DNA of 64,000 nucleotides from Escherichia coli (lineage in GTDB: Bacteria; Pseudomonadota; Gammaproteobacteria; Enterobacterales; Enterobacteriaceae). Position numbers: made by a program. The number at the start of each line of letters is the position of its first letter. Positions within the stretch are counted from its first letter, which is position 1. The DNA is taken from assembly GCF_045037415.1 (NCBI RefSeq), contig NZ_CP173438.1. One strand, 5' to 3'. Below are positions 39,512 through 42,500 of this stretch, one piece after another.

Positions 39512-42500
39512 TCATCCTCTCCGGATAAGGCACGGGCGTAATCTGCCAGTGTTTTCTTGTTGGTTGCTGCACCATCCTCTTCCTGCAGGCTCGCCAGCAG
39601 TGCACTGAGATCCAGCTGCCAGCGGGAAATACTGATGCGCAGCGCCGCCAGCGCATAAACGAAGCAGTCGAGCGCCTCATTGCGTCGCTTTTTGCTGTCC
39701 CACAGTATTTTTTTCCTGCCATCCACCCATTTTTCGACCTGCTCTTCAGCAGTCAGCTGCTGCGCTTCGGTCAGATCAAAAATATCCGGGTTATTCGGGA
39801 AGTGAACGGCACCGGGAAGCGGTTCATCCCCTTCCGGCGTCAGTGTGAAGCGGTTATAAATCTGCTCTTTCGCGGTATCCGTACCGATTTCCGTAAGGTA
39901 AACCCCGTTTTTGTTTCGCTTACGTGGCATGCTGGCCACCGGCTTTCCGTAGACGGATGCCCCTTTAATGGGGATCACCCGGAACAGCCCATGTTTTTTC
40001 GAGCGTTCATACACGATGGTCGGGTCAATCCCGCCAATATCCCAGCAGATACGGGATACCGACATTTCTGCACCATTCCGGCGGGTATAGGTTTTATTGA
40101 TGGCCTCATCCACATGCAGCAGCGTCTGTTCATCGTCGTGGCGGCCCATAATAATCTGCCGGTCAATCAGCCAGCTTTCCTCACCCGGCCCCCATCCCCA
40201 TACGCGCATTTCGTAGCGATCCAGCTGGGAGTCGATACCGGCAGTCAGGTAAGCCACACGGTCAGGAACGGGCGCTGAATAATGCTCTTTCCGCTCTGCC
40301 ATCACTTCAGCATCCGGACGTTCACCGATTTTCGCTTCCCATGTCTCACCGAGCGTGGTGTTCACGAAGGTTTTACGTTTTCCCGTATCTCCTTTCGTTT
40401 TCATCCAGTCTTTGACAATCTGCACCCAGGTGGTGAACGGGCTGTACGCCGTCCAGATGTGAAAGGTCACGCTGTCCGGCGGCTCAATCTCTTCACCGGA
40501 TGACGAAAACCAGAGAATGCCATCACGGGTCCAGATCCCGGTCTTTTCGCAGATATAACGGGCATCAGTGAAGTCCAGCTCCTGCTGGCGGATGACGCAG
40601 GCATTATGTTCGCAGAGATAAAACACGCTGGAGGGATCATCCGGCGTCCATTTGAGGCCAAACGGCGTCTCTTTATCGCCAAATTTAAGGTACTGCTCCT
40701 CCCCGCAGTGCGGGCAGGCAACATGAAAACGCATACAATGCGGGGATTCACTGGCTGCACGCTCAATCTGACAGGTGCCTCTCACTTTGGGCGTGGAGCC
40801 ACGGATGGACTTTGGCCAGACCGAGCCTTCAATACGTTTGTCGCCAAGGAACGTCGGAGAGCCTTCCTGTTCAATATCCTCATCAAAGGCAGCAAGTTCA
40901 TCATAACCCGCCACATCCACCGACTTTTCACGGTAGTTTTTTGCCGCTTTACCGCCCAGGCACCAGAAGCCACGACCATTGGAAAAACGCTTCATAGTGA
41001 GCGTGTTATCCCGGTGCTTTTTGCCATACCACGGAGCCAGCGCCAGCAGCGACGGAATATCGCGGATGGTCGGCTCAACGTGGGTTTTCATAAAGTTCTC
41101 GGCATCACCATCCGTCGGCAACCAGATAAGGGTGTTGCGCTGCTTGTGCTCTATAAAGTAGGCATAAACACCCAGCAGCATTTTGGAATAACCGACACGG
41201 GCAGACTTCACCACATTCACCTCACGGATGTAGTCGCTGCCCATCGCATTCATGATGGCCCGCTGAAAGGGCAGTGTTTCCCAGCGCCCTTCCTGGTATG
41301 CGGATTCTTTCGGGAGATAGTAATTAGCATCCGCCCATTCAACGGCGGTCTGTGGCTCCGGCCTGAACAGTGAGCGAAGCCCGGCGCGGACAAAATGCCG
41401 CAGCCTGTTAACCTGACTGTTCGATATATTCACTCAGCAACCCCGGTATCAGTTCATCCAGCGCGGCTGCTTTGTTCATGGCTTTGATGATATCCCGTTT
41501 CAGGAAATCAACATGTCGGTTTTCCAGTTCCGGAAAACGCCGCTGCACCGACAGGGGGATCCCGTCGAGAATACTGGCAATTTCACCTGCGATCCGCGAC
41601 AGCACGAAAGTACAGAATGCGGTTTCCACCACTTCAGCGGAGTCTCTGGCATTTTTCAGCTCCTGTGCGTCGGCCTGCGCACGCGTAAGTCGATGGCGTT
41701 CGTACTCAATAGTCCCTGGCTGGAGATCTGTCTCGCTGGCCTGTCGCAGTTCTTCAACCTCCCGGCGCAGCTTTTCGTTCTCAATTTCAGCATCCCTTTC
41801 GGCATACCATTTTATGACGTCGGCAGAGTCATAAAGCACCTCATTACCCTTCCCACCGCCTCGCAGAACGGGCATTCCCTGCTCCTGCCAGTTCTGAATA
41901 GTACGGATACTCGCGCCGAAAATGTCAGCCAGCTGCTTTTTGTTGACTTCCATTGTTCATTCCACGGACAAAAACAGAGAAAGGAAACGACAGAGGCCAA
42001 AAAGCCCGTTTTCAGCACCTGTCGTTTCCTTTCTTTTCAGGGAGTGTTTTAAATAAAAACATTAAGTTACGGCGAAGAAGAACGGAAACGCCTTAAACCG
42101 GAAAATTTTCATAAATAGCGAAAACCCGCGAGGTCGCCGCCCCGTAACCTGTTGGATCGACGGAAAGGACCCGAAAACGAGAATAATTATCACTTACAGC
42201 AAGAATCGAATCTGATCTATTATGGTGCTTGCTATTATGTGCCGGCACAAGTGCGTCGTTTACCGTCATTTCACACAGAGGCATCATCAAATGAAAATCA
42301 GAAATATTCTCGCTATCTCCCTTGCGACATCATCCTTCAGTTGCCTGGCATTTAAATCCTCGCCCAATGTGCTACCAGGACCAACGAATCAACTAACTGC
42401 GGTAGAAAGTAAAATTATCGGACATTTTTATGCCCCACACAGTACATTACCCGGAACAACCATCACAGGGACATGTGACGCCTCCCCCGTCCCGGGATGC

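Follow-up and report, generated by a model that had tools for sequence, protein, structure and literature searches.

A complete lambda-type cos site in an icd-integrated sitABCD/iss lambdoid prophage of Escherichia coli

The cos site and its closest relatives

[quoted passage not shown] NC-SV from adherent-invasive E. coli NC101 is a lambda-related icd prophage with head and tail modules homologous to those of lambda (PMC12803456). The cos site is not discussed in either of these two papers, and our comparison with PAI-536-icd and NC-SV is based on the published descriptions. The 64-kb stretch of E. coli contig NZ_CP173438.1 (assembly GCF_045037415.1) analyzed here, termed the window in the following, harbors an element of the PAI-536-icd type, i.e. 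the published icd-integrated sitABCD/iss lambdoid prophage. A first-pass annotation of the window had pointed out the reverse complement of the 12-nt lambda cohesive end within this prophage. We found this 12-mer to be the center of a complete lambda-type cos (cosQ-cosN-cosB) of about 195 bp on the minus strand (41977-42172) and consider it very probable (at about 0.93) that it is the prophage's own complete lambda cos, at which its DNA is cleaved to be packed into heads.

A further relative, PhiR47_2 (PV340567.1), has been deposited as a phage with E. coli C given in the host field. It is a sitABCD-carrying, icd-type lambda-like phage that is collinear with the element in the window at 96-99.7% nucleotide identity and features the same bor/iss - TonB-like - cos - Nu1 gene order, with 3 of 365 positions differing around cos and no gaps.

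The cohesive end GGGCGGCGACCT is present without any mismatch. Positions 42131-42142 of the plus strand read aggtcgccgccc, its reverse complement, and this minus-strand copy is the single exact match when both strands of the window are searched. A chance match can be ruled out because the exact 12-mer occurred in none of 100 dinucleotide-preserving shuffles of the window and because more than 200 bp of its flanks match those in lambda, while the two matches that carry two mismatches (9715 and 44851) stay at chance level, 4.1 being expected. For the alignment to the lambda genome ends that had been suggested along with the 12-mer, the right and left ends of NC_001416 were joined and aligned to the minus strand of the window, and subsites were identified by string check with coordinates taken from PMC9026076 and from the annotated phage 21 record OL657228. 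The outcome left the 12-nt core intact and extended it into a stretch free of mismatches and indels from lambda 48493 to bp 70, such that the distance between cosN and R3, which has been described as critical (PMC9026076), is retained.

All subsites of lambda cos (NC_001416, 48473-48502 and 1-167) are shared with the window, as are the cosQ-cosN and cosN-R3 spacings and the start of Nu1, and cosQ, cosN, R3, the I1 core, R2 and R1 each correspond to lambda base for base. The site cosN, defined as 16 bp (PMC9026076) and composed of GGGCGGCGACCT with CG on either side, occupies 42129-42144 on both strands and is identical to lambda 48501-14. The packaging-termination signal cosQ (GGGTCCT, 42166-42172, minus strand) is identical to lambda 48473-48479 and lies 23 bp from the top-strand nick, just as in lambda. 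The whole of cosB (41977-42093, minus strand) comprises the set R3-I1-R2-R1. R3, the critical box for binding of the small terminase subunit (TerS), reads AGGCGTTTCCGTTCTT (42078-42093, minus strand) and matches lambda bp 50-65 with 0 mismatches. The predicted I1 core for integration host factor (IHF) lies at 42057-42069 on the minus strand, agrees with lambda bp 74-86 throughout and reads AAACATTAAGTTA when taken from the other strand; this 13-mer is annotated as I1 IHF core in OL657228 and deviates from the IHF consensus at two positions. R2 (42020-42035, plus strand) is identical to lambda bp 108-123 and inverted with respect to R3 and R1, the last of which (41977-41992, minus strand) is identical to lambda bp 152-167.

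Beyond bp 70, identity to lambda is about 95% through cosB into Nu1, and the R2-R1 spacer shows a 1-bp deletion and one substitution. On the other side, the similarity to lambda sets in some 60 bp to the left of cosN (around lambda 48443, window position around 42200); further along the lambda right arm, up to bor/iss, the two sequences are unrelated. The interval originally assigned to the site, 42100-42170, does hold cosN but clips cosQ and omits cosB altogether. Its placement between Nu1 (41953-41408) and the lysis/bor side (iss at 43713-44006, Rz and R) was correct.

Nu1 and then A follow directly downstream of cosB, both as intact open reading frames (ORFs). Nu1, the TerS protein of 181 aa (41408-41953, minus strand; Pfam Phage_Nu1, E = 2.9e-100), starts with an ATG at the position equivalent to lambda bp 191, the same start as in lambda, and agrees with lambda Nu1 in 178 of 181 residues (98%). 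The large terminase subunit A (TerL, 641 aa, 39508-41433, minus strand; Pfam GpA_ATPase and GpA_nuclease) agrees with lambda gpA in 635 of 641 residues (99%).

State of the prophage and proposed packaging route

The prophage that owns the cos site spans 14916-64000 on the minus strand, is integrated at icd and extends to an int end about 1 kb past the window. The end at 14916 was set by the last base of collinear PhiR47_2 and the icd ends by the annotation of E. coli JJ1887, and an icd fragment is present at 14904-15071. In JJ1887, the prophage resides between icd and a partial icd copy with int/xis next to icd, and its annotation lists int, xis, exo, bet, gam, a repressor, replication genes, Q and sitABCD. 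Window positions 1-23818 are 100% identical to JJ1887, positions 21000-49151 differ from it at 2 positions, and 3 kb of the window are 100% identical in JJ1887 and in many other E. coli genomes.

Judged from the sequence, the full site, its cognate terminase and the head and tail genes are demonstrably present and intact. The genes W, B, C/Nu3, D, E, FI, FII, Z, U, V, G/T, H, M, L, K, I and J occupy 23193-39511 on the minus strand, and for each of the lambda head and tail proteins, Nu1 to J, the alignment covers the full length in one frame at 94-100% amino acid identity (about 82% for I and J). From cos to J, 18 kb match lambda at 97% nucleotide identity in a single high-scoring segment pair, and with this extent of similarity the earlier suggestion that the prophage could recombine with lambda-type phages is reasonable.

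Cos sites also persist as remnants in defective prophages, like cos/nohD of DLP12 and cos/nohA of Qin in E. coli K-12, and the site described here may be an equally inert relic in a grounded element. Several observations appear to point in this direction: The Prokaryotic Genome Annotation Pipeline (PGAP) calls the Nu1 gene 'nohD' and flags two tail-fiber fragments as pseudogenes in JJ1887, an IS66-family element is inserted in the prophage, elements of this kind have been termed 'pathogenicity island' (PMC9686529), and the identical copies in many genomes fit vertical inheritance. We nevertheless consider a relic improbable. Remnants of the DLP12/Qin type are characterized by a truncated or orphan terminase and by missing morphogenesis genes, whereas here Nu1, A and the entire head and tail set up to J are of full length, and the JJ1887 annotation gives int, xis, the repressor, the replication genes, Q and the lysis genes as intact. 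The insertion sequence (IS) has entered a cargo gene, at its 3' end, outside of phage functions, and the collinear relative PhiR47_2 has been deposited as a phage genome. As to the tail fiber, the side-tail-fiber gene at 21107-23128 is a single open ORF of 673 codons, equal in length to the intact Stf of PhiR47_2. The identical sequence in JJ1887 has been split by RefSeq/PGAP into two partial pseudogenes and, since the ORF is open for 673 codons, these flags look like an annotation artefact.

Some points weigh against an own, functional cos all the same. Cleavage, induction and virion production of this particular prophage are deduced from lambda biology. A literature search for the publication behind PhiR47_2 found none, and the viability of this phage is indicated by the host field only. 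The R2-R1 spacer is 1 bp short, though this variant is common in natural phages. Nu1 carries an A45D exchange directly after its DNA-binding helices. Finally, the insertion of ISEc23, the IS66-family element, raises the estimated prophage length from about 47.6 kb to about 50.1 kb. This corresponds to about 103% of lambda and stays below the upper limit for packaging, which is about 105% of lambda length.

Should the site be the prophage's own cos, as we favor, packaging would take the following route. After induction, the prophage would excise from icd and replicate into concatemers, on which gpA would nick cosN at two positions 12 nt apart, predicted at 42143/42142 on the minus and 42131/42130 on the plus strand, and would thereby create a 12-nt 5' cohesive end at 42131-42142. 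Packaging would proceed from the cosB/Nu1 end via A, the head and tail genes, sitABCD and the att junction to int, the replication and the lysis genes and would stop at the next cos, with cosQ and cosN directing the terminating cut. The product would be a chromosome of about 50 kb with GGGCGGCGACCT 5' overhangs. Just as in the PhiR47_2 record, sitABCD would travel in this virion chromosome.

The first-pass annotation had also proposed that lambda-type terminases could package the prophage. This is consistent with subsites that equal those of lambda but has to be restricted insofar as a repressed single copy offers just one cos. A second co-oriented cosN was not found downstream in 42 kb of the window plus the next 9 kb of JJ1887 (51 kb). 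Without a second cosN within this distance, in-situ packaging of the unexcised prophage by a helper is unlikely. With one cos in the repressed, unexcised copy, a helper terminase could make its cut but would be unable to finish a chromosome there. For cross-packaging, the prophage has to excise and replicate or, alternatively, be present in tandem copies.

The site is confirmed as real and represents textbook biology in a known prophage. Its importance lies mainly in correct annotation: the packaging module is intact and not decayed, the chromosome ends would be fixed for virions of a prophage with sitABCD and iss that is widespread in ST131/extraintestinal pathogenic E. coli (ExPEC), and the terminase class able to mobilize the prophage or recombine with it can be named as lambda-specific and not 21-specific.

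Packaging specificity and natural variation

The same 12-nt end occurs in lambda, phi80 and phage 21. Lambda and phage 21 discriminate against each other's DNA more than 1000-fold, and do so through cosB and TerS (PMC4669245). The specificity determinants are bp 56 and 59 of the R boxes and TerS residues 20 and 24, and pairing of R3 bp 56, 58 and 59 with Q20, E24 and the wing residue K35 of TerS provides the criteria for lambda specificity (PMC4669245, PMC9026076). Since lambda, phi80 and 21 carry the 12-mer identically and lambda and 21 still discriminate, the 12-mer is insufficient for specificity. The first-pass annotation, which had deduced lambda packaging specificity from the 12-mer, thus arrived at the right conclusion from evidence that does not suffice on its own. 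What does support lambda specificity of the prophage are the R boxes and the Nu1 helix. R3, R2 and R1 are those of lambda, and residues 1-44 of Nu1, which span the recognition helix (17-24) and the wing (31-39), show no exchange relative to lambda, Q20, E24 and K35 among them. The 12-nt core, then, marks a lambda-like cosN but not the packaging specificity, for which the R boxes and the recognition helix of TerS have to be consulted.

To place the site among natural relatives, IMG/VR was scanned for the 17-bp cosN core. The scan yielded 120 loci (L006-L125) and 112 distinct sequences of the region from -90 to +210 around cosN, each with the exact core and nearly always with GGGTCCT at the position of cosQ. 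About 42 of the 112 have a lambda-type cosB, and among these 42 cosQ is invariant and R3 bp 55-63 nearly so. Window and lambda differ across cos by about ten substitutions and the 1-bp deletion, all in spacers (48485/6, 48492, 71, 73, 97, 100, 102, 134 and about 137), and every one of these differences falls at a position that is polymorphic among the 42 natural sites. By its sequence, the cos in the window is an ordinary natural allele of lambda cos. Underneath an invariant cosN, the recognition helix of TerS varies in step with the R3 box, and at least five cosB/TerS classes can be distinguished in IMG/VR. Among them are, besides the lambda class to which the window belongs, a 21-like and a third class as well as Rpp-type classes of phage-inducible chromosomal islands (PICIs). 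These classes constitute a ready natural data set for rules of TerS-DNA recognition. The 195-bp cos is found at a coverage of at least 80% in 3,983 of 5,426 complete E. coli genomes (73%), and 612 records match it with at least 99% identity.

A phage 21-type or other non-lambda specificity may seem conceivable given that the 12-mer is the same in lambda, phi80 and 21, that the prophage is integrated in icd with a 21-type integrase, and that in IMG/VR a non-lambda cosB accompanies this cosN core at most sites. Phage 21 cos (OL657228) moreover shares not only the 12-nt end and the integration site icd with the window but also the R3-I1-R2-R1 layout and its coordinates. It is of distinct specificity, however, and the decisive elements differ: Of the 16 positions of R3, 5 set the window apart from phage 21 (AATCGTGTCGGTACTT), with bp 56 and 59, which determine specificity, among them; compared to lambda there are 0 mismatches, and the 2 mismatches to phi80 lie outside of bp 55-63. 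Nu1 has Q20/E24 where TerS of phage 21 has E20/S24, and identity of the cosB region amounts to 95% with lambda compared to 69% with phage 21. A 21-specific cos is thereby refuted at sequence level, and we regard a non-lambda specificity as exceedingly unlikely.

Equally remote is a satellite cos of the PICI type hijacking the terminase of a helper: although cosQ and cosN of PICI cos1-rpp (EcCICFT073 type) are nearly identical to those of lambda with the same spacing (PMC9026076), cosB of PICIs has no lambda R boxes and precedes rpp, the product of which redirects the helper TerS, whereas the window has a full R3-I1-R2-R1 set instead of the GGTGGTGG-type PICI cosB, no rpp-like gene, a 181-aa Nu1 that is 98% lambda as next gene and then gpA, and the element encodes a complete virion in place of the incomplete set of a PICI, so that its gene content refutes this possibility. 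Simple cos sites of the N15 type, in which the end differs from lambda at bp 9 and 12 and a single R3 occurs with no I1, R2 or R1 (PMC4669245), do not apply either, the 12-mer being that of lambda and three R boxes plus I1 being present. Packaging of lambda DNA by an N15-specific terminase has been reported (PMC4669245).

With all recognition elements being those of lambda, lambda-specific terminases should use the cos of this prophage and, vice versa, its terminase should use lambda cos. Initiation at this cos by a phage 21-specific terminase should not occur. Since every recognition element equals that of lambda, one may tentatively imagine a virulence-cargo prophage (sitABCD, iss, inverse autotransporter) in a single cross-packaging pool with all lambda-specific E. 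coli phages and prophages, its accretion of cargo perhaps capped by the cos-to-cos size limit, an idea that we rate as rather doubtful. If it is true, the ISEc23-bearing copy with about 103% of lambda length would be just under the size limit and might already package or inject poorly.

Satellite loci, cargo and neighboring genes

Ten PICI-type loci in IMG/VR (L016, L018, L025, L037, L047, L053, L056, L057, L058 and L124) feature two inverted cos that bracket an rpp-like gene, as exemplified by L025 (1363-2300). One cos has a PICI-type cosB and the other a full phage-type R3-I1-R2-R1 cosB that comes in three flavors. Two of these share the R3 core with phage loci that have distinct TerS helices, one of them 21-like and one with the helix VDVRTITAWQSQG. 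EcCICFT073 has two cos, and the authors report that no phage cosB was found and ask why some PICIs have two (PMC6739421). One explanation may be that cos2 of PICIs represents a genuine cos of the helper type that belongs to a different specificity class and can be used without Rpp.

On the minus strand at 41960-42045, inverted R2 and R1 fold, in the sense of the late transcript, into a strong hairpin of -34.7 kcal/mol (z = -4.8) that is followed by CUGUUUUUGU. The predicted structure looks like an intrinsic terminator directly upstream of Nu1 and might, in the lysogen, shield the terminase genes against read-through.

The lysis cassette for holin, R endolysin and Rz/Rz1 is located at 44038-45264 on the minus strand (JJ1887 annotation), with Rz (44499-44038) and R (44972-44496) showing 97.4% and 93.7% amino acid identity to lambda, respectively. 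The gene at 43713-44006 (plus strand) is annotated as iss in JJ1887 and encodes a Bor-family lipoprotein with 92.8% amino acid identity to lambda Bor (Pfam Lambda_Bor, E = 1e-30). The segment of about 1.5 kb between iss and cos (42200-43700) is unrelated to the bor-cos segment of lambda and contains a gene for a TonB_C lipoprotein (42906-43232, minus strand). Pfam searches with small ORFs near cos (42291-42542 plus, 42430-42783 plus and 42517-42699 minus) gave no match. For the first of them, the N-terminus (MKIRNILAISLATSSFSCLA) resembles a signal peptide, and the JJ1887 annotation lacks this ORF. Scanning the window with Rfam and for tRNAs likewise gave no match.

The sitABCD operon for an iron/manganese transporter (16985-20434) lies inside the prophage between the tail-fiber genes and the attachment-site end. 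The interval between replication gene P and the nin region is occupied by an inverse-autotransporter cargo gene (51744-55652) and ISEc23 in the window and by ren, an SMR-like gene and ybcK in PhiR47_2. The inverse autotransporter has 1302 aa in the window versus 1421 aa in JJ1887, one internal repeat of 357 bp being absent in frame. ISEc23 (49152-51683, 2.5 kb) contains three ORFs (HTH_Tnp_1, TnpB_IS66 and DDE_Tnp_IS66), has an 8-bp target duplication on either side, CAAAACCC (49144-49151 and 51684-51691), and sits in the last codons of an alpha/beta-hydrolase cargo gene (48124-49155). JJ1887 lacks this element, the junction of which is common to 67 complete genomes.

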